Positions 6,289 to 20,287 of a stretch of 64,000 nt of DNA are shown here, in pieces. The translations under genes and the position numbers were made by a program. Numbering within the stretch: the first letter of the stretch is position 1; each line of letters begins with the position of its first letter. This DNA comes from Escherichia coli (GTDB lineage Bacteria; Pseudomonadota; Gammaproteobacteria; Enterobacterales; Enterobacteriaceae): assembly GCF_044324875.1 (NCBI RefSeq), contig NZ_CP172185.1; one strand, 5' to 3'. The notes beneath the pieces were generated by a model that saw only the letters and a program-made list of their open reading frames with translations, made no database searches and was not told where the DNA came from.

Positions 6289-7410
6289 TTACCCTTCGAA
6301 GAACCAATACCCGCTATTGACCAGCGCCGCGAGCATCGCGAGGAATGACGGATCTTCCAGCGCATCGCCAAAATTCTCCGCAGTCAGCGCAATGTTGCTG
6401 GCGAGTGCATCCAGTGCCGGACGGTGCGGGGAATCGATCTTCTCACCATTGGCATACACGTCGTCGCCAATGCGCAATACGCGCAGACCACCCAGACGCA
6501 CCAGCACTTCACCTTGTTTCAGCGCATCGTAGATTTCATCCGGCTGATAAGGCGGCTCTGGCGGCGCGATATCCAGTTCATGGCGTGACTGGGATATAAA
6601 CTCCCCAAACCATTGCTTAAAGTGTTCCGGCTGGTTGATCAATTCGAGCATCATCTCACGCAGTTTATCCATCTCTTGCGGCAGAACATCCGCAGGATGA
6701 GCGCGAGGTGAAACATCAGGATCGCTGTAGTAGTTGCCGCCCAGTTCACGTTGCAGCACATAATCGGCAAATCCGCTAATCAGTTCCCGCGTATTTGGTG
6801 CGCGAAAACCGACGGAATAGTTCATCGCATTTTCCAGCGCGTAGCCTTCATGGGGGAATCCTGGCGGAATATAAAGAATATCGCCTGGCTCCAGTTCTTC
6901 ATCAATGATGGCTTCGAACGGATCAACCTGTAACAGATCCGGGTGCGGGCAGTGCTGTTTCATTTGCAGCTTTTCGCCCACTCGCCAGCGACGACGTCCG
7001 GTACCCTGAATGATAAACACGTCGTACTGATCGAGATGCGGGCCGACGCCGCCGCCAGGTACAGAAAAAGAGATCATCAGATCATCAATACGCCAGTCCG
7101 GTAGTTCACGGAACGGTCGCATCAGCGCGGCGGTCGGCTCATGCCAGTGGTTCACTGCCTGCACTAACAATGACCAGTTAGTTTCACCGAGATGATCGTA
7201 GCTTTCGAACGGGCCGTGGCTGACCTGCCATTTGCCATCCTGGTGGCTGACCAGTCGACTGTCGACTTCGCTTTCCATCGCCAGACCCGCCAACTCGTCT
7301 GGAGAGATCGGGTCAATAAAATTATTAAAGCCGCGTTTTAACACCACCGGACGTTTCTGCCAGTGACGTTCAAGAAAATCGGGCCAGTTAAGAGTGAGTT
7401 GGTATTCCAT
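6289..7410 (-). CDS. roxA: Ribosomal protein L16 arginine hydroxylase (JmjC/cupin 2-oxoglutarate oxygenase) RoxA/YcfD.
   Basis: ORF 6289..7419; start taken at MEYQLTLNWPDFLERHW (373 aa). Confidence 0.9.
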   Translation of the reverse strand: MEYQLTLNWPDFLERHWQKRPVVLKRGFNNFIDPISPDELAGLAMESEVDSRLVSHQDGKWQVSHGPFESYDHLGETNWSLLVQAVNHWHEPTAALMRPFRELPDWRIDDLMISFSVPGGGVGPHLDQYDVFIIQGTGRRRWRVGEKLQMKQHCPHPDLLQVDPFEAIIDEELEPGDILYIPPGFPHEGYALENAMNYSVGFRAPNTRELISGFADYVLQRELGGNYYSDPDVSPRAHPADVLPQEMDKLREMMLELINQPEHFKQWFGEFISQSRHELDIAPPEPPYQPDEIYDALKQGEVLVRLGGLRVLRIGDDVYANGEKIDSPHRPALDALASNIALTAENFGDALEDPSFLAMLAALVNSGYWFFEG

Positions 7411-7611
7411 GTTAAGCATCCACAGGCTGGTATCTGCAACCGATTATAACGGATGCTTAACGTAATGCGTGAAGTATGGGCATACTTTATCAATTAGTGT
7501 TTTTTGCCGTTTCATAATGTTTCAGGTTGTGCATTATGTTTTTGATTATAAACAAATTTGTGATTTTTCTTGTTCCAGCTTGTTTCACGTTGTAGCCCTT
7601 TGTGCAACGAT

Positions 7612-7637: not shown

Positions 7638-8888
7638 GTGATGACCGGATTCAAAATTATGAGCAGAGCACTTAACAAGCTGAGCGATACACAGCTAAGG
7701 AAAATCAACGGCACACCCGCCCAAAAAACAGCCTTTCTTAATGACGGTGGAAACTTGAGCGTCAGGCATTCAACCAGCGGCCTTTTAACCTGGTATTTCA
7801 CTTACAGGGCCGGAACGGGAAGGGGGGCATCACCGGAACGCATTAAGCTGGGAAATTATCCTGATCTGAGCCTGAAATCAGCCAGGGAAAAAGCCGCCCA
7901 GTGTCGCGCATGGCTGGCTGAGGGGAAAAATCCACGTCATGAGATGAATTACACCGTACAGGAAGCGTTAAAGCCTGTAACGGTTGGCGATGCGCTCACC
8001 TACTGGCTTGAGTCGTACGCAAAGGAAAACCGTGTGGATTATGACCCACTGAAAAAGCGGCTAAATAATCACGTAATACAGCACATTGGCCCTATGCCGC
8101 TGGATAAATGCGAGCTACGGCACTGGCTGGCCTGTTTTGATCGGGTGGCAAAGCAAGCCCCTGTTTCCGCCGGGTTCCTGCTACAGACATGCAAACAGGC
8201 GCTTAAGTTCTGCCGGAAGCGGCGCTATGCAATCAGCAACGTTCTTGATGATATGAGTGTGGCTGACGTTGGGAAAAAACCGGATATAGGCGAACGTGTC
8301 TTAAGTACCAAAGAACTGGGCGAATTATTGCAGGCACTGGACAAAAAAATATTTTCCCCTTACTACGTCGCACTAATCCGCCTCCTGATTGTTTTCGGAT
8401 GCCGGACAGTAGAACTGAGGTTATCGGAGATCGGCGAGTGGGATTTTACCGAAATGCTCTGGACCGTTCCGAAGGAGCACAGCAAAACGAAGGTAGCCAT
8501 ATTCCGGCCCATACCGGAAGCGATACTGCCGTTCGTCACGCAGCTGATGGAGCAGAACAGGCACACGGGCTTATTGCTGGGGGAAGTGAAACAGGAAACC
8601 AGCGTGTCGCAGTACGGCAGATTAGTGCACAGGAGGCTTAAACACCCTCACTGGTCACTGCATGACATCCGGCGCACCTTTACAACGATGCTGAACGATT
8701 TAGGCGTGGATCCTCACGTCGTGGAGCAGCTTACAGGCCACCAGATGCCAGGAATGCAGCGAGTTTATAATCATTCCCGTTATCTGGATGCGAAACGCAA
8801 TGCGCTGGATATGTGGACGGAGCGGTTAGGGATACTGGCGGGAGCACATGAAAACGTAACCACGCTACCAGTAACCAGAAGAAAATAA
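7638..8888 (+). CDS. int: Tyrosine-type site-specific integrase (P4-like family).
   Basis: Starts immediately after attL; C-terminal catalytic region ...LHDIRRTFTTMLNDLGVDPHVVEQLTGHQMPGMQRVYNHSRYLDA... (R, H-x-x-R, Y). Start ambiguous: GTG 7638, ATG 7641 or ATG 7659. Confidence 0.85.
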   Translation: MMTGFKIMSRALNKLSDTQLRKINGTPAQKTAFLNDGGNLSVRHSTSGLLTWYFTYRAGTGRGASPERIKLGNYPDLSLKSAREKAAQCRAWLAEGKNPRHEMNYTVQEALKPVTVGDALTYWLESYAKENRVDYDPLKKRLNNHVIQHIGPMPLDKCELRHWLACFDRVAKQAPVSAGFLLQTCKQALKFCRKRRYAISNVLDDMSVADVGKKPDIGERVLSTKELGELLQALDKKIFSPYYVALIRLLIVFGCRTVELRLSEIGEWDFTEMLWTVPKEHSKTKVAIFRPIPEAILPFVTQLMEQNRHTGLLLGEVKQETSVSQYGRLVHRRLKHPHWSLHDIRRTFTTMLNDLGVDPHVVEQLTGHQMPGMQRVYNHSRYLDAKRNALDMWTERLGILAGAHENVTTLPVTRRK

Positions 8889-8970: not shown

Positions 8971-9262
8971 CCACGAACAAGAGGTCAAAAAGTATACAGA
9001 TTTATAAGTTGCTGATTTTTAATGCTCAACTGGTTTTTTATACATTAGCGAATAACGCTTTAAATAGTGAGAAAAAAGTCATAAAACGAGATTTTATGCC
9101 TTTGCATAATACTGAATTAAAATGATTTTTATTAAAATCACCCCGTTTCTGTAAAATACCCGCCACCAACATTTGCCAACTCTGAATCACCCTGACACAA
9201 TCAGACACATCCCAACGCAATAGAACACGAAATAACTCTTTAAGAAACGAAAGGGGGCAATA

Positions 9263-9451
9263 GTGTTAAGCACTGATCGGTTTATACGTGAAAAAGAATG
9301 CGAAAAGCTAACAGGCCTTAGCCGCTCATGCCGCTACCGCCTGGAAAAGGCCGGACAATTCCCATCACGGCGTAAGCTGGGCGGTCGTTCCGTTGGCTGG
9401 TCTTTATCCGAAGTTCTGGCATGGAAGGAAAGCTGCGAGGCAGTTCACTAA
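9263..9451 (+). CDS. alpA: AlpA-family phage transcriptional regulator / excisionase-like HTH protein (62 aa, GTG start).
   Basis: MLSTDRFIREKECEKLTGLSRSCRYRLEKAGQFPSRRKLGGRSVGWSLSEVLAWKE matches the AlpA/CP4-57 regulator pattern; sits just downstream of int. Confidence 0.75.
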   Translation: MLSTDRFIREKECEKLTGLSRSCRYRLEKAGQFPSRRKLGGRSVGWSLSEVLAWKESCEAVH

Positions 9452-9777
9452 AAAGACTGGCGGCACACAGCCGCCACCCATCCACTAATACAGAGATTTA
9501 ACCATGAAGACTGGATATACGCCCGAACAGGGGCGGGGCTTCGTTCGGCCTGGTGAAACTGAAAAACAACAAAATCGCGGTTTTTCAGGCATAAAAAAAG
9601 CGGCCCCGATAAGGAGCCGCCTTTCTGAACAATTAACCTACAGCGCAAAAAATGAATCTGAGCAGTGGGATTATATCAACCGTGCAACGAAGCGCCACAA
9701 TTGCCGGATAACGGGCAAAGAAAAGGCCACCTGTCACGGTGGCCAATGTGATCAGTGTGGTGGCTTGCTGGTGGCTA

Positions 9778-9969
9778 TCAACCTTTGGGTTCTATACCGC
9801 GCCGCTTTAGTTCAGCGCGCCCCAACTCTTTAAGCCAGTTGGCTAGGCTTATGCCGTCGCTCTGCGCTTCTTTGTCGAATTGCTCTTTTAGCTCTGGAGA
9901 AATTCGCATTCTGAATTGTGGGGATTGCCCATCACCCTTAGGGCTTTTATCACGTTTGATTGTTGACAA
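9778..9969 (-). CDS. Small ribbon-helix-helix (Arc/CopG-like) DNA-binding protein, candidate repressor, divergent from the replication operon.
   Basis: 63 aa, ...RMRISPELKEQFDKEAQSDGISLANWLKEL...; followed on the minus strand by a stem plus T-run terminator (~9590–9628). Confidence 0.5.
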   Translation of the reverse strand: MSTIKRDKSPKGDGQSPQFRMRISPELKEQFDKEAQSDGISLANWLKELGRAELKRRGIEPKG

Positions 9970-10016
9970 GTGGTCACCTATTAAATTAGCCTTTCTATTG
10001 TTAGGTGGTCACCTTA
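9969..10016. promoter_or_regulatory. Divergent promoter/operator region with two direct GTGGTCACCT repeats.
   Basis: AGTGGTCACCT at 9970 and GGTGGTCACCT at 10005, between the RHH gene start and the first gene of the rightward operon. Confidence 0.35.
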
Positions 10017-10088
10017 ACACGGGGACACTTAAAAAAGCAAAGCCCGAAGGCGCTAGGAACACCAACGGGCTTCTAACCACAAACCGTT

Positions 10089-10301
10089 ATGAGAGGTAGT
10101 TTTATGGCTGTAAGACAGCATACCCCACGACTAGCGCACACACAAACCGCCTTTGTGTGGCGTTTTCTGGCACTGAGTGCCGGAGAATCTCAAATCATCC
10201 ACGTAACCGCCTGGACGGAACGCGAAGCGCGTAGCCGTTGCCCGTCCGGTTGTGTTGCTGTATTCGCCGCCCGTATTCGTCAGGGGGTGTACCATGATTA
10301 A
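10089..10301 (+). CDS. Small protein resembling host cell-division inhibitor Icd-like proteins of P4-type satellites (weak call).
   Basis: MAVRQHTPRLAHTQTAFVWRFLALSAGESQIIHVTAWTEREARSRCPSGCVAVFAARI...; first gene of a translationally coupled operon; alternative start at 10104. Confidence 0.4.
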   Translation: MRGSFMAVRQHTPRLAHTQTAFVWRFLALSAGESQIIHVTAWTEREARSRCPSGCVAVFAARIRQGVYHD

Positions 10302-10662
10302 CCTGTCACTTACCGATCTTAACCGCGTTCAGTTTCGTGAGAAATTTACCGGACAGCTACTCGTCAATGTGGAGAACGGGCGCATAGTGCGTAATTATCA
10401 CCTGCCGGATGGTGCAATTGCCGGAAGCGTTGAAGCATTGCTGGAACTGGCGGAACGTGCGCGACTGATTAAGCCGTCAACGAGCCATCACGATGATGAT
10501 CTGCATTTTACCGGATGTATGGTGAGTCACTACGAAAACGGCGTCGAGGTATCCTGCGAACGGCTGCGTGATGATTGCTGTTTCGGCACACTGCCGGAAT
10601 TTATCGAATTGCTGACCAGTTGCGGATATCAGGTTATTCAGGGGGTGCGCCATGTGCAATAA
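10294..10662 (+). CDS. Hypothetical protein (~122 aa), satellite early operon.
   Basis: ORF with start/stop overlap to both neighbours; no recognisable motif. Confidence 0.55.
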   Translation: MINLSLTDLNRVQFREKFTGQLLVNVENGRIVRNYHLPDGAIAGSVEALLELAERARLIKPSTSHHDDDLHFTGCMVSHYENGVEVSCERLRDDCCFGTLPEFIELLTSCGYQVIQGVRHVQ

Positions 10663-11107
10663 CATCCGTCCGGACGCAGCAGGCGAAGCCATCATAACGC
10701 TAATGCACGCGCTGATTGATATTTCATGCACGGCAGCAACCGCAGAAAAACACATTACCAGAGAGCCGGAATATACAGGGGCAATAATCCCGCATTCGCT
10801 GGCCTACGCACAGCTAACCGCTGATATGGCGCTGAATGAGGCTAAAGCCATCCTGATTGCTGATTGTGAAAATGGGGGGGGGGTTATGCGTGATGATCGT
10901 TTTAATTCCCTGAAACAGGAATTTTCCGGCGTTCCTGATAATGCGGCTGATGCGCTTTCGTCAATATCTGAAATTATGCGGGTGGCTTTTTTCTTTCTTT
11001 GCACTGATGAGCACAGGGATACAGGGCTAAATATTCTTGATATCGCCGCTAATTATGCTGATTTCGTAACGGAAACTGTTTTAAGAAAAACGACGGACGG
11101 GGATTAA
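10652..11107 (+). CDS. Hypothetical protein (151 aa), satellite early operon.
   Basis: Intact ORF overlapping the upstream stop; no recognisable motif. Confidence 0.55.
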   Translation: MCNNIRPDAAGEAIITLMHALIDISCTAATAEKHITREPEYTGAIIPHSLAYAQLTADMALNEAKAILIADCENGGGVMRDDRFNSLKQEFSGVPDNAADALSSISEIMRVAFFFLCTDEHRDTGLNILDIAANYADFVTETVLRKTTDGD

Positions 11108-11108
11108 T

Positions 11109-11342
11109 ATGCGTGATATTTACCACGAAACAATAGACCGCGCATTTCTTGCACTTTCTCACAGTGAAAATATGTTGGAAATATTGCGCATATGTCTTGA
11201 AACGCTTGGAGATAATGAACGTGATAAACAGAAATCAATGATTGTCACGGCATTAATAACGCTTCTTGAGCCTGTAATAAATGAGTTGCAGGAAATAGAG
11301 ACATTACACGACCAGTATAAAGCGCCCCACACCGGAGAATAA
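11109..11342 (+). CDS. Hypothetical protein (77 aa), satellite early operon.
   Basis: Starts 2 bp after the upstream stop. Confidence 0.5.
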   Translation: MRDIYHETIDRAFLALSHSENMLEILRICLETLGDNERDKQKSMIVTALITLLEPVINELQEIETLHDQYKAPHTGE

Positions 11343-11347
11343 AAAAC

Positions 11348-11635
11348 ATGAAAAATAAAAATTCTGGCGTTAATGCCAGCGGCCCCGCTCGTCCTGAAAT
11401 CCGTCCCGGCGATATTTTCCGTGATAACTACGGCGGCACGGTAATGATTAAGGGCGTGGAAGAACGGCGCGTAACCTACCGCCGTGATGGCTACGAATAT
11501 GACTGCGTTATGCCTGTTTATCAGTTCCGGCGTGATTTCACGCTGGTGGGCCATCGTAAAGCCGTTAATCAGAAACGTGCTGCAAGTTATATCCGCAAAA
11601 TCCGTGAAATGCTGGTCGCAGGGGGTAAGAAATGA
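11348..11635 (+). CDS. Hypothetical protein (95 aa), overlaps the replication gene start.
   Basis: Intact ORF; stop overlaps the start of the next gene (ATGA-type coupling). Confidence 0.55.
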   Translation: MKNKNSGVNASGPARPEIRPGDIFRDNYGGTVMIKGVEERRVTYRRDGYEYDCVMPVYQFRRDFTLVGHRKAVNQKRAASYIRKIREMLVAGGKK

Positions 11636-13038
11636 AACTTGCACCGAACGTAAAACTGTTACCGAAAGATAAACACACTGAGGCGGTTATTTTTGCGGGT
11701 GATAATGCTCACTCCTTTGCAGAACATTACATGATTGCACAGGCCAAAAAAGCAGGCGATCCCATCCCTCCGGTTTACCTGGGCCGTTATCAGTTAAGCG
11801 AACTGGACAACTTACAGATTGTTGATGAAGGACGATACAGGGCAAAGGTCATACGCGCCGGAAACCTGGACGATATGCAGATGCTGACCATTGCCACAAA
11901 ACTGGCGATCGCCGGAGTCCAGGAGGCGCGCCTACTTTCTGAAAATTTCGAACTGCTGGAGGACTGGAGCGACCAGCTACCACGACTACGGGAAACATGG
12001 GAGAGAGGGGAAAGCCTGGTCATGAATGGCGGAAAGCGAAAAATCACACTTCCCATCTCATGGGGTTCTGAGGGATTCGATGCGCAGCAAAGCTACGTCA
12101 TTAAGGGGCTTATTCCGGCTGAGTCATTATGCAGCACCTACGGGGCCAGCGGTTCTTATAAATCGTTCCTCGCCATTTCCTGGTCGTGCCATGTTGCCAC
12201 AGGTATGGCATGGGGAGGCCGCAGGGTAAGTAAGGGTGCGGTTATCTATATCGCTGGCGAAGGCAGCATGGGCGTAAAACGCCGCGTTAAGGCGTGGGAG
12301 ATAACCCACGACAAGGTGGTTACAGATTTGTGCATCATTAACGCGCCTGTTTTCCCTGCATCGCCTGACTATGTGGAGCAGGTTATCAGGACTGCCGGAC
12401 TTGTTAAGAGCAGAACGGGCGAAAATGTGCGGCTGATTGTGATCGACACGCTGGCCCGTTGCTTTGGTGGGAATGATGAAAATGATTCCCGTGATATGGG
12501 CGCATTTATCCAGGGGTGTGACGCGATAAAGCAGGCCACAGGGGCCACGGTGCTGGTGGTTCACCATTCCGGCAAGGATGAAACAAAGGGGGCGCGTGGT
12601 TCCAGTGCATTCCGTGCCGCGCTTGATGCAGAGTACCGAATCAGCCGCGAAAATTCAGACGTTACAGCACTGGTCGCAGCATGTACGAAGATGAAGGACG
12701 CAGAGGAGCCAAAAGAGAGCGCATACGACCTTAAAAGCGTGGAGGTGTTCACCGATACAGATGGCGAAGAAATTGTGTCCATGGTGGTGATTGACGTTCC
12801 CCGCGCCCCTGCTGAACTGGAGCGCATCGAGGAGGCAGGCAACAAGACGGAAAACCATACCGCGCTATGGGGGTGCATCCGTTCACGCACACAGAACGGC
12901 GACAAGTGCACGATCCCGCTGTTACGTGATGACATGAAACGGCTTGGGTATGACGTGAAAAATATGCGGCGATGGTTAGCCAAACTGGAAAAAGACGCCG
13001 TGATTTACATTGATGGTGATGATGTAGGACCACTGTAA
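11632..13038 (+). CDS. Replication initiator / RecA-fold P-loop ATPase (RepA/AAA_25-like primase-helicase family).
   Basis: 468 aa; P-loop-like YGASGSYKSF, Walker-B-like LIVIDTLARCFGG, VLVVHHSGKDETKG; followed directly by iterons. Confidence 0.75.
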   Translation: MKLAPNVKLLPKDKHTEAVIFAGDNAHSFAEHYMIAQAKKAGDPIPPVYLGRYQLSELDNLQIVDEGRYRAKVIRAGNLDDMQMLTIATKLAIAGVQEARLLSENFELLEDWSDQLPRLRETWERGESLVMNGGKRKITLPISWGSEGFDAQQSYVIKGLIPAESLCSTYGASGSYKSFLAISWSCHVATGMAWGGRRVSKGAVIYIAGEGSMGVKRRVKAWEITHDKVVTDLCIINAPVFPASPDYVEQVIRTAGLVKSRTGENVRLIVIDTLARCFGGNDENDSRDMGAFIQGCDAIKQATGATVLVVHHSGKDETKGARGSSAFRAALDAEYRISRENSDVTALVAACTKMKDAEEPKESAYDLKSVEVFTDTDGEEIVSMVVIDVPRAPAELERIEEAGNKTENHTALWGCIRSRTQNGDKCTIPLLRDDMKRLGYDVKNMRRWLAKLEKDAVIYIDGDDVGPL

Positions 13039-13240
13039 AAAGTGAGTAGTAAAAGTGAGTAATGGTGAGGTTTTTACAAAATATTAACACAATTACTCAC
13101 TTTCTCACCTGTATACATGCTCAAAAGTGAGCAGTGAAAAAACACTTATGAAACATGCACATATAAAACACAAAAATCTCAAGTGAGACGAAGTGAGACG
13201 CTTTAAAAAGTGAGTAGTAAAAGTGAGAGATGGTGAGCAA
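13039..13240. repeat. Iteron cluster, putative satellite replication origin.
   Basis: A ~30-bp unit AAAAGTGAGTAGTAAAAGTGAG(T/A)(A/G)ATGGTGAG occurs twice (13037–13070 and 13203–13237), with about ten AAGTGAG-type motifs including tandem AAGTGAGACGAAGTGAGACG and an inverted copy. Confidence 0.55.
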
Positions 13241-13608
13241 TGAATAAAAACCGAACAGCAGGACAAAATACCGAAGGTAAATTTATGAACACTGAAATTG
13301 AAACACTGAGCATATCAACTGCCCTTCCTGGCTGGTGGGCTAAGTTCAAAGACGACGACGGCACGGAATGGTATAGCCCAATTGCTGCATGGGCGCTTTG
13401 TGATATCCACCATTTCGGCACCGGAGATACTTACCGCGAAATCTTACCCGTGCTGACCAGTGAGCTGGGCATGAGTCCGCATAGTCCTGATGAGGGAATG
13501 TGCGAGTGCCTTTATCTGCCGGATAAGAAGTTTGTTCACTGTGGTGAATCGATGGTATTTGCCTGGTATCCGGTTAACGACAGCAGCAATAGCGGTACTC
13601 TGGAGTAA
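13240..13608 (+). CDS. Hypothetical protein (122 aa; alternative start MNTEIETL at 13285).
   Basis: ORF immediately downstream of the iterons. Confidence 0.45.
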   Translation: MNKNRTAGQNTEGKFMNTEIETLSISTALPGWWAKFKDDDGTEWYSPIAAWALCDIHHFGTGDTYREILPVLTSELGMSPHSPDEGMCECLYLPDKKFVHCGESMVFAWYPVNDSSNSGTLE

Positions 13609-14784: not shown

Positions 14785-14991
14785 ATGGCAGAAGAGAAAA
14801 AAGGCGGGGTGACGGTCTACATAAGCCCCGACATCGTGGAGGCGCTCAAGGAACGCCACCAGCAGAATGTAAAAGCAGGCATTGCGGCAGGACTTGATCC
14901 GCTGGCGATGGTTGAGCCGTCAACAGGCTGGCAGGTGCGTACCTATTTACGTGCGGCGCTGGGTATCAATCAGGTTCACGGAGGTGAATAA
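14785..14991 (+). CDS. Hypothetical small protein (68 aa), first gene of the head module (possible scaffold or assembly factor).
   Basis: ORF translationally coupled to the capsid gene; preceded by an AT-rich promoter region with palindromes TGATTATAATCA and TTGCGCAA. Confidence 0.45.
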   Translation: MAEEKKGGVTVYISPDIVEALKERHQQNVKAGIAAGLDPLAMVEPSTGWQVRTYLRAALGINQVHGGE

Positions 14992-16046
14992 TGACAGGCA
15001 AAGCAAAGGCACTTACAACTAACCAGCTTTTCGCGTACCTGAATCGCGGGGATATTTCGGAATATAAATTTAGTCCGCTGTTTACCACGCTGTTTTTCCC
15101 GAACGTGGCGACCTTCAACACCCAAAACATCATGCTGGACACCCTGGACATTGAAGAGGTTACGATGTCAGCGTTCTGTTCTCCTATGGTGGGTAGTCAG
15201 GTCCAGCGCGATAAAGGGTACGAAACCAGCACGATTAAACCAGGCTACATGAAGCCAAAGCACGAAATCGATCCAACAAAGACCATCATGCGCATGGATG
15301 GAGAAGATCCGGCACAGCTTAACGATCCAACTTACCGCCGTATGCGCCTGATTACTGGCAACATGCGCCGCCAGATAAACGCCATTAAGGCGCGCGTGGA
15401 ATGGCTGGCGGTGAATGCGGTAACGACCGGAAAAAACATCATTGAGGGCGAAGGCATAGAACGCTATGAAATCGACTGGAAAATACCGGAAAACTGCATC
15501 ATACAGCAGGCCAGTGGTAAAAAATGGTCCCAGCAGGATAAAGACATGCACGACCCAATCTATGACATCGAGCTTTATGCTGATCAGGCAGGTTGCCCCG
15601 CCAACGTCATGATTATGGGCGGTGAGGTATGGCGCACATTACGCAGCTTTAAAAAATTCCGTGAACTGTACGATCTTTCCCGTGGATCAGAATCCGCCGC
15701 CGAGCTGGCCTGTAAAAACCTGGGCGAAGTGGTGAGCTTTAAAGGCTATCTTGGTGATCTGGCCCTTATCGTCTATTCCGGCAAATACACTGACAGCGAC
15801 GGGACCGAAAAATATTTCCTTGAGCCTGATTTGCTGGTCCTGGGTAACACCAACAATAAAGGGCTGGTGGCATATGGTGCGATTATGGATCAGGAAGCGG
15901 TAAGAACGGGCGCAACGCAAAACATGTACTACCCGAAAAACTGGATTGAGGACGGCGATCCGGCGATTGAGTACGTGCAGACGCACAGCGCACCGCAGCC
16001 TGTACCGGCAGATATTCGCAAATTTGTTACCGTCAAAATTGCTTAA
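14991..16046 (+). CDS. Phage lambda gpE-family major capsid protein homologue.
   Basis: 351 aa; collinear matches to recalled lambda gpE: FSPLFTTLFFP vs FDPLFLRLFF, PGYMKPKHEIDP vs PGYVKPKHEVNP, DPTYRRMR vs DPAYRRRR, VSFKGYLGDLALIVYSG vs VSYKGMYGDVAIVVYSG, YYPKNW vs RYPKNW. Confidence 0.85.
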   Translation: MTGKAKALTTNQLFAYLNRGDISEYKFSPLFTTLFFPNVATFNTQNIMLDTLDIEEVTMSAFCSPMVGSQVQRDKGYETSTIKPGYMKPKHEIDPTKTIMRMDGEDPAQLNDPTYRRMRLITGNMRRQINAIKARVEWLAVNAVTTGKNIIEGEGIERYEIDWKIPENCIIQQASGKKWSQQDKDMHDPIYDIELYADQAGCPANVMIMGGEVWRTLRSFKKFRELYDLSRGSESAAELACKNLGEVVSFKGYLGDLALIVYSGKYTDSDGTEKYFLEPDLLVLGNTNNKGLVAYGAIMDQEAVRTGATQNMYYPKNWIEDGDPAIEYVQTHSAPQPVPADIRKFVTVKIA

Positions 16047-16057
16047 CGGGGGATTCT

Positions 16058-16393
16058 ATGGACGCTCCATACATTGAGTTATTTTCAGGCAGCCAACAGG
16101 TATCCACGACGCTGGTACATTTTGCCGCTGATGCTGGCGTTATTCAGGAATTTACCCCGCTGATGCTGGCAGACAATGGCGAGTTTAAGCCGTGGGATGG
16201 TAAGGAATCTGGCAAGGCTGTTTATCTGACCTCGTACCCTGTGGACACGTCAAAGCAGAAATCAGCACAGTGTTACAAGACGGGGATATTCAATATTGCC
16301 GCCGTTAACTGGCCTGACAGCGTCGACACCGATGCGAAAAAATGCGCCGCCTTTGCGGGTTCCGGCGTATCCGTTCAGCCGCTGGCCCGATAA
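16058..16393 (+). CDS. Phage lambda gpD-like head decoration protein homologue.
   Basis: 111 aa; FTPLMLADNGEFKPWDG / KTGIFNIAAVNWPDSVDTDAKKCAAFAGSGVSV parallels lambda gpD MTPLMLDTSSRKLVAWDG / [34 protein letters not shown]. Confidence 0.7.
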   Translation: MDAPYIELFSGSQQVSTTLVHFAADAGVIQEFTPLMLADNGEFKPWDGKESGKAVYLTSYPVDTSKQKSAQCYKTGIFNIAAVNWPDSVDTDAKKCAAFAGSGVSVQPLAR

Positions 16394-16467
16394 GCAGGGG
16401 GAACGATGGCACAAACCAGGGCGATGACGGCGACATCTATCGCATACTGAAAACCATCTGAGACAAG

Positions 16468-16491
16468 GCCGGAGAAATCCGGCTTTTTTTG
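16468..16491 (+). terminator. Rho-independent terminator after the head genes, just upstream of cos.
   Basis: GGCCGGAGAAATCCGGCTTTTTTT; near-identical to the 14551 terminator. Confidence 0.55.
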
Positions 16492-16499
16492 CGGGTCCT

Positions 16500-16640
16500 T
16501 TCCGGCATGTGGACCCGTTACGGGGCGTCGACCTCGCACGTTTTCGCTATTTATGAAAATTTTCCGGGAAAAAGCATGTCAGTTCTTCTTGTTATTAACA
16601 TATTGTTTTTAAAGAAATAACTATCAAGAAAGAAACGACA
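16500..16640. other. Lambda-type cohesive-end site (cosQ/cosN/cosB-like); predicted 12-nt overhang region GGGCGTCGACCT at 16523–16534.
   Basis: GTTACGGGGCGTCGACCTCGCACGTTTTCGCTATTTATGAAAATTTTCCGG is near-identical to the lambda genome ends (GTTACG|GGGCGGCGACCTCGCGGGTTTTCGCTATTTATGAAAATTTTCCGG); a downstream GAAAGAAACGACA resembles a lambda cosB R site. Confidence 0.8.
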
Positions 16641-16710
16641 TCATAATGATGAAAAATCTGTTTTTTTTGGCATTTCATGTCGTAACTGATTTTTGATAAG
16701 GAATTGCTGA

Positions 16711-17295
16711 ATGAATGTTAATAAAAAGAGGCTTGCCGAAATTTTTAACGTGGACCCGCGGACGATTGAACGCTGGCAGTCACAGGGGCTTCCTTGCGTC
16801 TCCAAAGGCAGTAAGGGCATTGAATCTGTATTTGATACTGCCATGGCAATTCAGTGGTATGCGCGGAGGGAAACTGATATCGAAAACGAAAAGCTCCGCA
16901 AAGAACTGGACGATTTGCGTGCGGCAGCGGAGTCAGATTTACAACCCGGCACCATTGACTATGAACGCTATCGGCTCACAAAAGCGCAGGCAGATGCGCA
17001 GGAACTTAAAAACGAGCGCGATCGCGGTGACGTGATTGATACAGAGTTTTGCATGTACGCGCTTTCAAAACTGGCGAGTCAGATTTCATCAATCATGGAC
17101 AGCCTCCCGCTTACTATGCAAAGGAGCTTCCCACAGATGACCCCCGCCATGCTGGATGGCCTGAAAAAAGAAGTTGTCAGAGCCTGTAACGCATGCACAA
17201 AACTTGATGAAAACATCCCGCGAATGCTGTCCGATTATCTGATGGAAACTACCGGAAATGTGCCTGATAAGTTTCAGCCGGATAAAGACAAGTAA
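16711..17295 (+). CDS. Terminase small subunit, lambda Nu1 family (TerS/Rpp-like).
   Basis: [29 protein letters not shown]...[44 protein letters not shown] tracks lambda Nu1 MEVNKKQLADIFGASIRTIQNWQEQGMPV...[44 protein letters not shown]. Confidence 0.85.
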
Positions 17296-17536
17296 CGTAG
17301 TGCACAATGACCGAAGCCAGTTTACTGACTGGCTTTCAGCGTTGCGCTGGTGGGCGTTATGCGTCAGTGATAAACGTCTCCAATATTACTGATATTCGAC
17401 ATCCCCACCTCTCCACACCAGCTCGAATATCATTTTTCTCATTAAAAACAGGACATTAAAAACTGGTCAGATGTCCCATAAAAAGCCAAATGGGACAGGT
17501 CAAAAGCTTTTTTTGCAGTAATTTTCAATAGGTTAC

Positions 17537-17935
17537 TTGATGTGGTGGTGTCCCATGAAAATTCAAAAATCAGCCGTTTTCCGCGATGCTCCCGCCCCGT
17601 GGCAGGGCACCCCACAAGGAGGACCCGCCATCACTATGGAGGACATGACCATGACCGAGACCGAAGCGCTCGGGATAATCCGCAGTATTACCGGAATCAG
17701 CCAGCAGGCTGGCGAACAGGAGGCCACGCAGCCGGACAGCGTGATCGCCGAAAATTACGTGCGTGTTGTTGCTGATGTAATGCGCCGTGATGGTATTGAG
17801 CTTAACGGCGTGGATATGCGCGACATACGAATCAGAGTACTAGAGTTGCTGGCATACCGTCGACGCGTGGCGATGTATCAGGAGAGCGCGAAAAACACTT
17901 ATCAGTGGAAGAAGCCGGAGCGGTTACGGCGGTAA
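17537..17935 (+). CDS. Hypothetical protein (likely ~100 aa from an internal ATG near 17636, which has an RBS).
   Basis: ORF downstream of terS; no recognisable motif; ends 1 bp before the palindrome array. Confidence 0.45.
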   Translation: MMWWCPMKIQKSAVFRDAPAPWQGTPQGGPAITMEDMTMTETEALGIIRSITGISQQAGEQEATQPDSVIAENYVRVVADVMRRDGIELNGVDMRDIRIRVLELLAYRRRVAMYQESAKNTYQWKKPERLRR

Positions 17936-18560
17936 CTGGTTGATATTTTCGAAATTCGCCAGCGGCGAACATCGGGGAAACCAGCCTAACCAGTTGATTC
18001 TTTCGGAAACAGCCATTGGCGGAATCCGGCGCGGTAACTTGCTGATATTCCCGATAACGCAAAATTGCGCTGGCTACATCCCTCACATCTGAGGACTGAT
18101 AATGCGACATTGCGCTGGCTGGCAAAGTGCAAAATTGCACGATGGCCTAACCCATTGATTATTTCGAAAACCTGCAATGCAGGAAATCGGGGAAGTAAGC
18201 CTAAGCTATTGATTCTTTCGGAAACCTCAATTTGAGGAAGTCGGCGCGGTAACTCGCTGAACTTAAAGCAAACCTCAAAATTGAGCTGGCTGAATAATCA
18301 TTATGATTACGCAGATGATTAAGGAATGACCGAAGGCGGAAATTCGCCTGTGGTTGATGGGGGAGTTGCAGATCTGCAACTCGACCATGAAACTACGGAA
18401 ACTACCCGTAGTTTGGGTAGTAAGAGTAACACCCAGATTTTGGGACTTACTCGTGATACCCAAATTTGGAGTATCGGTGGCAACCATAACGACTTTCGTT
18501 ACGGTTGATGCTTTTACCCCATTGGGGGAAAGGTATTACGATAATCATAACACCTACCGA
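17936..18560. repeat. Array of many distinct short palindromes in a diverged, duplicated scaffold (unknown function).
   Basis: Scaffold TTGAT(A/T)(T/A)TTTCGAAA...ATCGGGGAA..AGCCTAA occurs twice, and TTGATTCTTTCGGAAAC...TCGGCGCGGTAACT..GCTGA twice; different palindromes in each copy (e.g. TTCGCCAGCGGCGAA, CCTGCAATGCAGG, GTTGCAGATCTGCAAC). Full list in findings. Confidence 0.7.
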
Positions 18561-18720
18561 ACAGGTAAAGCCCACCAGCCTGATTGACATTTAACCGGAA
18601 AAAAAGCCAGGTAGCCCCGTTATGTGGATCCCCATATCGACAGCAACGCCCCCTTAAAATTACCCGCCTTTATATTTCTTGTGCCTATTTGTTCCACGTT
18701 GTTTCATACAGTGCGCCGAA

Positions 18721-18746
18721 CGGTGTAGTTAATGGTGTAGTTAATT
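18721..18746. repeat. attR core, direct repeat of attL.
   Basis: Identical 26-mer to 7612–7637. Confidence 0.65.
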
Positions 18747-18826
18747 TGCGATTTTTGGCACTTTTGTTTGTGTATATTTTTAATTAAATCAATACATTAA
18801 CTAATATCGGTGATAAAAGGGCATAT

Positions 18827-20287
18827 TTATTCATCTTTCGGCGCAGAATGCTGGCGACCAAAAATCACCTCCATCCGCGCACCGCCCAGCATGCTCTCTC
18901 CGGCGACGATTTTACCCTCATATTGCTCGGTGATTTCGCGGGCTACCGCCAGCCCTACACCTTGCCCAGGGCGTAAAGTATCAACCCGTTGACCACGGTC
19001 GAAAATGACCTCTCGCTTGCTTAATGGAATACCGGGGCCATCATCCTCGACCACAATATAGAGATGCTCGTCGGTTTGCCTTGCAGATATTTCGACAAAC
19101 TCGAGGCAATATTTACAGGCATTATCCAGCACGTTGCCCATCACCTCGACAAAATCGTTCTGCTCACCGACAAAGCTGATCTCTGGCGAAATATCGAGAG
19201 AGATATTGACCCCTTTGCGTTGATACACTTTGTTCAGCGCCGAGGTGAGATTGTCCAGCAGTGGGGCGACCGGATGTAGCTCGCGGCTAAGCAATGTCCC
19301 GCCGCGCATACTGGCACGATGCAGGTAGTAGCCAATTTGCTGTGAAATGCGACTGATTTGCTCCAGCATTACCGGCTCAGCATCACTGACGCTCATCTTC
19401 TCACTACGCAGAGAACGCAGCGTACTTTGCAGCACCGCCAGTGGCGTTTTCAGACTATGGGTCAGGTCGGTGAGCGTTGTACGATATTTGTCGTAACGTT
19501 CGCGTTCACTTTTTAACAATCGGTTCAGGTTTCGTACCAGACTGGTCAGTTCTCGCGTTGTGGCTGGATTGAGCAATTCGCGGTTATGTTCTTCCAGTTC
19601 GCGGACTTCTTTTGCCAGGGCTTCGATGGGGCGTAAACTCCACCTGGCGGCGACCCACAGCAGCGGGATCACTAACAGCAGATTGGCTGAGAGCACATAG
19701 ATAAACCAGCTCCAGACCATATAGGAACTTTTTAGCTCCACCGGAATGGTATCCACCACCACAATGGTCAACTTTGGCATCCGCGATGTTGCCGGGTAGA
19801 CGTTTACCGCCACCGAGTGGGTCATCTCCGCGTCGTCATCATCTTCCCGCACTTCCTGCAACTGTTGCTGTATCGAATGATCTCCACTCAGCAAGAGGCT
19901 GGTATCGTTAACATCCGCTTCAATTTCATGAAAACCATTCGATTTCAGCCAGTCAGGCTGGATCATCTTCATCAGCCAGGGCACGTCACGTTGCGCCCAT
20001 AAAAGCTGCCCGTTCTCATCATAAATTAGCGTCATAGTGGGGCTTTGCTTGTCGATATTTTCGGGTAACTCGACATGCAACTTATTGTTTTCCCACTTCG
20101 CAAGGGTATAGAACAGATTGCTCTCGCCACGTAACAGCCGAAACGTAGTTTTATCGAAACTGACGCTATAACCGATCAGCGCGACCATTCCGTAGGCAAG
20201 CGAAAGCACCAGTACAACCGCTGCCGTTGCCAATAGAAAACGTACCCGCAGCGAGAGCGGGAAAAAAAGACGCAGTAATTTTTTCAT
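18827..20287 (-). CDS. phoQ: Sensor histidine kinase PhoQ.
   Basis: 486-aa ORF; HAMP/histidine-kinase motifs ([17 protein letters not shown]); overlaps phoP stop. Confidence 0.95.

Follow-up and report, generated by a model that had tools for sequence, protein, structure and literature searches.

A chained early/replication operon in an AlpA-type phage satellite of Escherichia coli, with a predicted antisense RNA over its leader gene

The gene chain and its conservation in related islands

The window analysed in this study, a 64,000-nucleotide stretch of Escherichia coli DNA (contig NZ_CP172185.1), contains an island of approximately 11 kb inserted between roxA and phoQ which, judged by its gene content, is a satellite, namely an AlpA-type Gram-negative phage-inducible chromosomal island (PICI). 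The int, alpA and RepA-type replicase genes of the island all lie on the plus strand, and five small co-oriented open reading frames (ORF1 to ORF5) are found directly upstream of the replicase gene (Table 1). These five ORFs had been described in an initial annotation made from the sequence, and the chain that they form is confirmed here as real and not a chance arrangement, based on its junctions, the selection acting on its genes, and its conservation in 82 related loci. The sizes initially given (70–151 aa) hold with the exception of ORF1, which starts at ATG 10104 and encodes 65 aa; this start has GAGAGG 7 nt upstream and is equivalent to the start used by RefSeq in homologues, while the ATG at 10089 that had been assumed was rejected for want of a ribosome site.

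The junctions from ORF1 through to RepA measure −8, −11, +1, +5 and −4 nt, the last being an ATGA overlap, and a Shine-Dalgarno-like motif is located 4–8 nt 5' of each start, within the preceding gene. A cassette of the form CAGGGGGTG-N4-ATG occurs at both the ORF1/ORF2 and the ORF2/ORF3 junctions, and a similar sequence, CAGGGGGT, lies 5' of the RepA start. The related loci used for comparison comprised 80 loci drawn from IMG/VR by similarity to DUF4222 (the family of ORF5) plus E. coli and phage loci, of which 82 were analysed. Junction spacings in these loci cluster at −11 (42 junctions), −8 (86), −4 (80), +1 (14), and +5 nt (53), and the cassette CAGG(G/A)GGTG-N4-ATG-N2/5-TAA recurs across loci and across unrelated module families. 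The entire chain could be walked in 67 of the 82 loci, with the next ATG always within about 14 nt of the prior stop. Overlapping or abutting stops and starts, internal ribosome sites, and conservation of both in relatives are the hallmarks of a coupled operon, and the coupling-type architecture proposed in the initial annotation is therefore present both here and in the related loci. Median dN/dS (nonsynonymous to synonymous substitution ratio) against homologues is 0.43, 0.31, 0.31, 0.21, and 0.42 for ORF1 to ORF5, respectively, and 0.22 for RepA. Gram-negative PICIs are common, as some part of the 1.7-kb region is present in 1657 of 5426 complete E. coli genomes (~30%). The same genes are annotated by RefSeq in related islands, and the operon itself is nothing out of the ordinary, being already annotated in elements of a known type.

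Table 1. Features of the island in the window, with positions in other loci where stated
Feature	Positions	Strand	Remarks
roxA	6289-7419	-	island flank
int	7638-8888	+	tyrosine integrase
alpA	9263-9451	+	regulator/excisionase family; phrog_2790, 1.3e-17; RefSeq homologue is an AlpA family regulator
Divergent small regulator	9778-9969	-	TTG start; weakly RHH/Arc/HicB-like (RHH, ribbon-helix-helix)
Palindrome A(A/G)GTG-GT-CACCT, two copies	9969-9980 and 10004-10015		35 nt apart; operator-like direct repeat
Predicted cis-antisense RNA element	10126-10032	-	about 75-80 nt, two hairpins
Predicted antisense -10 box, TATGCT	10122-10117	-	presumed start near 10110
Antisense 5' hairpin	10109-10075	-	carries anti-Shine-Dalgarno CCUCUC
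Antisense terminator hairpin	10071-10041	-	followed by U tract, 10040-10032
ORF1	10104-10301	+	65 aa
ORF2	10294-10662	+	122 aa
ORF3	10652-11107	+	151 aa
G10 homopolymer tract	10874-10883	+	ORF3 fusion point, 4 nt before internal ATG 10888
ORF4	11109-11342	+	77 aa
ORF5	11348-11635	+	95 aa
RepA-type helicase (replicase)	11632-13038	+	last in chain
Shared replicase N-terminal stretch	11632-12010 (L004, 5405-5800; L005, 5239-5630)		directly 3' of DUF4222
Two small ORFs, SSB (single-stranded DNA-binding protein) gene, PerC-like gene			3' of the RepA-family helicase gene
Major capsid gene	14991-16046		decoration and small terminase (TerS) genes after it
phoQ	18827-20287	-	island flank
DUF4222 ORFs in phages	L007 (Shigella phage SfII), 2980-3159; L010, 2980-3159; L008, 2980-3192		59-70 aa

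The gene order in the 82 loci is a divergent RHH or YlcI gene, an Icd-like gene, one to five small genes, DUF4222, replicase, and SSB. An ORF1-type gene leads the chain in related loci, and the small genes of the 67 fully chained loci belong to only seven families. The ORF4 family is found in 57 of these 67 loci, directly 5' of DUF4222, while the ORF2 and ORF3 families are found in 26 and 40 of them, respectively, in varying order. The replicase is a RepA helicase in 37 loci, a primase in another 37, and a DUF927 protein in seven. ORF1, ORF4 and ORF5 are thus constant (ORF4 nearly so), while ORF2 and ORF3 are facultative, shuffled modules. Since the loci were chosen on DUF4222, the constancy of that gene is by construction, but the DUF4222-replicase junction and the presence of Icd are not. 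The initial annotation had suggested examining co-occurrence in related islands; this comparison reveals the split between the constant ORF1, ORF4 and ORF5 and the facultative ORF2 and ORF3, which had been missed. The split indicates for which genes an effect of deletion on replication is to be expected, and for which an effect on phage interference is conceivable.

A predicted antisense RNA at the ORF1 start

Alignment of the sequence upstream of ORF1 showed that every locus has a conserved hairpin and, after it, an invariant TCTAACCA box, placed 3' of the control region and 5' of the ORF1 ribosome site. RNAalifold found no structure in the plus-strand leader alignment, which prompted a comparison of the two strands. 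Mismatches that read C.A and A.C on the plus strand become G.U pairs on the minus strand; because of these pairs, the minus strand gives the more stable fold of the whole 71–79-nt unit in 20 of 20 variants (−32.8 versus −21.7 kcal/mol), and of the terminator hairpin in 17 of 20 (mean −19.5 versus −15.4 kcal/mol). A T-rich tail follows the terminator hairpin on the minus strand. The minus-strand fold of the window copy (−29.7 kcal/mol, z −5.0) was equalled by none of 200 shuffles, compared to 31 of 200 for the plus-strand fold (−19.2 kcal/mol, z −1.1). RNAalifold returned a two-hairpin consensus for 14 minus-strand sequences, in which 96% of the cells at paired positions are paired and five pairs are compensatory; the covariation score was 0.183, compared to 0.095 in shuffles (0 of 500 as high) and at most 0.073 when the pairing partners were slid. 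A covariance model (R1) built with the window left out gave a single match in the 64 kb (37.5 bits, E 8e-8) and 84 matches in 92 sources, all of them antisense to the operon.

A −10 hexamer (TATGAT, TATGCT, or TATAAT, often preceded by TG) is found at the same place in 52 of 52 distinct copies, within ORF1 codons 3–6 or 5–7 depending on the Icd variant (codons 5–7 in the window). The position of this box places the predicted transcript start approximately at the complement of the ORF1 start codon. The predicted RNA complements both the ribosome site and the start codon of ORF1 perfectly, and in the window its anti-Shine-Dalgarno sequence falls where the 5' hairpin is partly unpaired, in its upper portion. 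In the commoner Icd variant (type 2, starting MRNH or MLNH), synonymous sites of ORF1 codons 1–11 are invariant among 30 distinct sequences, compared to a mean entropy of 0.28 over codons 9–67. This RNA is also predicted, antisense to an Icd-like start, in islands of Edwardsiella, Providencia, and Photorhabdus and in an element from Klebsiella. A 15-mer scan of genome contigs yielded mostly chance matches, as a query of 15 bases would in 298 Gb, and three true ones, and 77 unrelated loci sharing a 15-mer had no R1 match. At the level of sequence, the locus combines a predicted promoter, a covarying antisense structure, a predicted terminator, and overlap with a ribosome site, as expected of a cis-antisense RNA; this conserved predicted RNA, which was not noticed in the initial annotation, probably switches the chain off.

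No Rfam family matched the antisense RNA at threshold. The best match was SymR (RF01809; minus strand, 10036–10109), but its score of 28.5 bits is far under the gathering score of 61, so the RNA is not considered a SymR member. Although C4 and isrK RNAs have been reported for some PICIs (PMC10111431), the Rfam C4/isrK models had no match in the window up to an E-value of 10, nor in 15 related loci at gathering score. None of the papers searched was found to describe an RNA at this position.

The operon is preceded by a divergent regulator gene, which the initial annotation had taken to be of the RHH type, a view supported by weak similarity (PHROG phrog_228, Arc-like, 4.4e-7; Pfam HicB 6.7e-4 and Arc 0.2). 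Many related islands have a YlcI/YnfO-family gene in its place. In the control region (9969–10015), two palindromes sit between the regulator and the antisense terminator; the motif AGGTG-NN-CACCT is kept in other RHH-type islands, while YlcI-type islands have different repeats, and the palindromes are likely operators matched to the type of regulator. A long-range complementarity between 9562–9596 and the ORF1 start was judged to be due to chance.

Proteins encoded by the chain

ORF1 belongs to the Icd-like family, matching NCBIfam NF033153 with 64.9 bits against a curated cut-off of 25 (residues 22–65 of the 70-aa ORF read from 10089); its PHROG matches are phrog_29966, 1743, and 6196. No P1 sequence was matched by tblastn, and its kinship to P1 Icd is therefore drawn from the NCBIfam profile. 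ORF1 had been the only ORF to receive an assignment in the initial annotation, and it is the sole ORF with an NCBIfam match; however, ORF5 can also be assigned, to DUF4222. Within ORF1 codons 12–22, a terminator-like hairpin (10139–10159) and T run (together 10139–10169) are present on the plus strand. This structure was observed only in the Icd variant of the window and is not kept in the commoner variant, and could be either a translation-sensitive attenuator or a chance occurrence.

ORF5 matches Pfam DUF4222 (PF13973) with an independent E-value of 7e-26 (residues 16–67; positions 1–52 of the 53 in the model). Its predicted fold is a Tudor/SH3-like five-strand barrel with a basic C-terminal helix, for which fold searches returned only generic Tudor, SH3, and KOW matches, and the homologues listed carry no annotation beyond the domain name. 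In 79 of 81 loci, with all three types of replicase represented, the stop codon of DUF4222 and the start codon of the replicase overlap as ATGA. The RepA protein of the window has an AAA_25 domain at residues 146–317 (5.8e-42) and matches phrog_2850. Its first ~125 residues (MKLAPNVK...), which have no Pfam match, are shared by sister islands, whether their replicase is a RepA helicase, a primase, or a DUF927 protein. This shared N terminus may be the region that DUF4222 works with, or it may mark a recombination boundary.

DUF4222 was also found by tblastn in 34 temperate phages. In all five lambdoid phages inspected (SfII, three E. coli-type phages, and a Klebsiella phage), the DUF4222 ORF is located between a cII-like gene and an O-like replication gene, directly 5' of the latter, whose start it overlaps or abuts; an overlap was read in three of them (SfII, vB_EcoS-733R5, and Klebsiella phage ST147-VIM1phi7.2). 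The ORF is often unannotated in such phages, as in SfII and vB_EcoS-733R5, where it lies out of frame within the 3' end of a ymfM-like gene. The ymfM gene of e14 is reported to encode a cell-division inhibitor; because the DUF4222 ORF sits inside the ymfM-like gene, ymfM clones would also carry it. As it adjoins replicases in islands and O-like genes in phages, DUF4222 is tied by position to four kinds of initiators (RepA-helicase, primase, DUF927, and O-like). This position is the best functional clue for any protein of the chain, and DUF4222 most likely acts with the replication initiator, as a small partner protein or as a delivery factor. The association of DUF4222 with four kinds of initiators, together with the unannotated DUF4222 ORFs in SfII/e14-like phages, also exposes an annotation gap.

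ORF2 consists of two tandem strand-strand-strand-helix modules with an FTG..ENG motif, as supported by sequence, AlphaFold2 (secondary structure in tandem; pLDDT 62.7), and hhalign (N half against C half, 85% probability, E 6e-6). It matches phrog_340, and some of its relatives carry the newer Pfam accession PF27490, which was not in the Pfam set searched. A match of ORF2 to phrog_2512 is not accounted for by similarity to ORF3 according to hhalign. Deletion recombinants between the module copies occur naturally (P0161, P0169). In ORF3 (phrog_2512, 5146, and 24341), two helical modules, residues 1–78 and 79–151, are fused that many islands encode as separate genes; the fused form was found in 15 loci and the split form in others. 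A search of 1.84 billion proteins gave only 47 cluster representatives for ORF3, and many of these contain a single module. In relatives, G7 or G10 at the fusion point yields the fused protein, G8 yields two overlapping ORFs, and G9 a third-frame tail (truncated form), and the G10 tract of the window may be prone to slippage. ORF4 is a 77-aa helical protein (phrog_2196, 7e-36) with no Pfam or PDB match and nothing beyond its own PHROG. The possibility that ORF4 and the two halves of ORF3 are paralogues was dropped, as hhalign found no relation.

For ORF2 to ORF4, Pfam returned nothing, PDB sequence searches returned noise, and fold searches (including that for ORF2) were uninformative, while the ORF2 and ORF3 homologues listed are unnamed, hypothetical, or prophage proteins. 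PADLOC recognised no families among the five ORFs, RepA, the RHH gene, and AlpA, and hence no defence system. The helper-sensing, anti-repressor, or anti-phage roles initially proposed for the small proteins are not borne out by these searches; for ORF2 and ORF3 they can still be imagined, but are without support. Several database proteins are natural fusions, joining AntA to the C-terminal ORF2 module, ORF2 to the C-terminal ORF3 module, or DUF4222 to ORF2 (P0172, P0124, P0131, P0150). These fusions point to recombination at junction cassettes, and some may be artefacts of assembly or gene calling.

Interpretation, alternatives and island context

The best explanation for these findings, and one that we consider reasonably probable, is an antisense-gated, translationally chained early/replication operon of an AlpA-type PICI. 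A single transcript would carry the Icd-like leader, the facultative modules (ORF2 and ORF3), ORF4, DUF4222, and the replicase. Ribosomes could pass down the chain via the junction cassettes, since each Shine-Dalgarno motif lies inside the upstream gene and each ATG overlaps or abuts the stop of that gene. Entry into the chain would be gated at ORF1 by a constitutive cis-antisense RNA that pairs with the ribosome site and start codon and thereby blocks translation of ORF1. With the genes linked in a chain and Rho termination favoured by an untranslated leader, the downstream genes, including the replicase, would in turn be silenced through lost coupling, Rho-dependent polarity, or a combination of the two. 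Strong transcription upon induction, driven by AlpA, by release from the divergent RHH/YlcI-type repressor, or by the two together, would outrun the antisense RNA and turn the chain on.

Several observations weigh against this explanation. The antisense RNA, its start, and its effect are predictions. No plus-strand promoter was located, as a promoter scan of 9200–13400 found no sigma-70 consensus. The antisense promoter has no good −35 box, and since it lies within coding sequence, the conservation of its −10 box is partly confounded with coding constraint. The nine compensatory pairs counted among the 52 distinct copies, with frequent switches from G.U to G-C or A-U, come from an alignment (A8) that was fitted to the model and from sequences that are related; the 5' hairpin shows little covariation, and the window copy, at 37.5 bits, scores lowest of the 84 R1 matches. 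Coupling may be facilitative rather than obligatory, because each downstream gene has its own strong Shine-Dalgarno sequence. In addition, DUF4222 is not adjacent to the replicase in the Providencia locus.

There are several potential alternatives to an antisense-gated chain. The tight packing may simply reflect genome economy, with each gene translated independently and no chain-wide switch. This would fit with the good Shine-Dalgarno sequences found at normal spacing before all six starts and with the two junctions (+1 and +5) that are small gaps instead of overlaps. However, economy would not be expected to conserve junction classes over 82 loci and unrelated module families, including a recurring cassette, or to keep the DUF4222 ATGA junction near-invariant with three different replicases, and we regard this explanation as rather unlikely. 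It is also conceivable that the small proteins, or at least ORF2 and ORF3, are helper-sensing, anti-repressor, or anti-phage factors that ride on the early transcript without a role in replication. Accessory and conflict genes are often facultative, shuffled, and fast-diversifying, as ORF2 and ORF3 are in E. coli (70–89% identity to their closest relatives), the AntA antirepressor domain (PF08346) is fused to a C-terminal ORF2 module in one database protein (P0172), and the equivalent operon of P4 encodes the anti-repressor epsilon. Nevertheless, the AntA fusion is a single assembly-derived sequence, dN/dS values of 0.2–0.3 indicate purifying and not diversifying selection, and the PADLOC, Pfam, PDB, and fold searches came back empty or uninformative. 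Interference would also leave the constant genes ORF1, ORF4 and ORF5 unexplained, making it an unlikely account of the operon.

Two further alternatives concern the conserved hairpins. The minus-strand structure could be a leader or attenuator of the divergent RHH/YlcI mRNA, or a terminator shielding the control region from stray antisense transcription, given that the RHH gene starts ~60 nt downstream of the hairpin and U tract on that strand and that no separate sigma-70 consensus promoter was found for the RHH gene. This seems quite improbable, as the conserved unit includes both a −10 box that places the transcript start at the complement of the ORF1 start codon and a 5' hairpin with an anti-Shine-Dalgarno sequence, and is kept with either divergent gene; even a leader RNA would be fully complementary to the ORF1 ribosome site. 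It has also to be considered that the hairpin acts in the plus-strand 5' untranslated region (UTR) as a stabiliser, a processing site, or an AlpA antitermination signal. In its favour, the hairpin and TCTAACCA box have this leader position in every locus, separating the control region from the ORF1 ribosome site, and the AlpA of Pseudomonas is a Q-like antiterminator. In contrast, the plus-strand fold of the window does not stand out from shuffles (z −1.1), the C.A and A.C mismatches turn into G.U pairs only on the minus strand, no U tract follows 3' on the plus strand, and R1 matches the minus strand alone, making a 5' UTR function very improbable. A plus-strand 5' UTR element, an rrn-type boxB-boxA antitermination site, and a rut site were all rejected on this strand asymmetry.

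The antisense-gated chain resembles several known systems, although its likeness to IncFII plasmid R1 and to P1/P7 immI is one of analogy and not of membership. The copB-copA-tap-repA region of plasmid R1 shares a small repressor protein acting at the promoter, a cis-antisense RNA of ~80–90 nt with two hairpins directed at the leader of the replication mRNA, and, if the proposed mechanism is correct, a requirement for leader ORF translation in order to translate the initiator. The leader here is a conserved 65-aa Icd-like protein compared to a 24-aa peptide in R1, four extra protein genes separate leader and replicase, the predicted RNA extends over the ribosome site and start codon of the leader itself, and the element is a phage satellite and not a plasmid. 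In the P1/P7 immI operon (c4-icd-ant1/2), an Icd-type small gene is likewise the first translated ORF, and a small RNA blocks icd translation and thereby turns off the downstream genes, which is the logic proposed for the island (PMC8198154; reportedly also Riedel 1993 and Biere 1992). However, c4 is on the same strand as icd, upstream of it, and acts through short complementary boxes, whereas a true cis-antisense transcript is predicted here with no Rfam C4 match, and the genes downstream encode an antirepressor in P1/P7 and a replicase chain in the island.

The left operon of P4 (CI RNA/seqA, kil-eta, cII, epsilon, orf151, alpha primase-helicase) also consists of early small ORFs ending in a replicase gene, and may share control by an RNA acting on the leader and on translation of the first ORFs (PMC10111431). 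Its CI RNA differs in being of the C4/isrK type and processed from the sense transcript, with no such match here, and only AlpA, Pri-Rep, and Int are reported to be distantly common to PICIs and P4 (PMC6092414). The ~77-nt SymR RNA of the E. coli SymR/SymE system similarly begins a few nucleotides inside its target ORF, covers the start codon and ribosome site, and folds into two hairpins of which the second is the terminator. The target in the island is not the SymE toxin, and type-2 copies (including L001) lack a SymR match.

Compared to the Gram-negative PICIs EcCICFT073 and EcCIEDL933, the island shares the order int, alpA, small ORFs, replicase, and late genes, with AlpA as the master activator. 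Homologous operons in O157:H7 islands cover 71% of the 1.7-kb query at 83% identity. The small ORFs of published Gram-negative PICIs are drawn as hypothetical genes, and the papers searched yielded no text on small-ORF coupling, a DUF4222-replicase link, or an antisense RNA at this place. The new elements are thus the predicted antisense gate, the positional linkage of DUF4222 to initiators, and the split between constant and modular genes. The founding paper on these islands considered it unclear whether Gram-negative PICIs have a global repressor (PMC6092414), and an antisense RNA over a chained replication operon is a concrete candidate for the missing negative control. We advance only tentatively, and as somewhat doubtful, the broader proposal that the antisense RNA and Icd-led chain are the missing Gram-negative PICI repressor and that DUF4222 is an unrecognised small initiator cofactor of satellites and lambdoid phages. 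If this were true, the antisense RNA would serve as a helper-independent immunity and copy-number switch, with the replicase silent until AlpA-driven transcription titrates the RNA.

With regard to the class of the element, the initial annotation had treated it as a satellite, a view upheld by the presence of int, alpA, replicase, SSB, PerC, capsid, decoration, and TerS genes between roxA and phoQ. Assignment to the Gram-negative PICIs follows from the int and alpA genes at one end, a co-oriented replicase, the small size, and the roxA/phoQ site; the layout of AlpA-type Gram-negative PICIs has been published (PMC6092414, PMC10111431), and the gene order seen here is also annotated by RefSeq in related E. 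coli islands. AlpA is the activator of Gram-negative PICI genes and is needed for induction, and the dependence of induction, replication, and transfer on a helper phage and AlpA has been demonstrated for EcCICFT073 and EcCIEDL933 only (PMC6092414). No portal, protease, or large terminase (TerL) gene was found before phoQ, and the region 16400–18800 contains no ORF of at least 80 aa big enough to encode a portal or TerL. The island is therefore not classed as a complete capsid-forming PICI, which would have the full capsid and packaging set; only the major capsid, decoration, and TerS genes were recognised. The late genes at 14991–17295 could belong to a PICI that has captured them or to a decayed capsid-forming PICI. 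Finally, the start of an ORF that follows alpA (9504–9833; no family match) resembles the Bro/AntA-type proteins of sister islands (MKTGYTPEQGRGFVRP...) and then diverges; its equivalent is a truncated pseudogene in RefSeq, and it is probably a remnant of a Bro zone.

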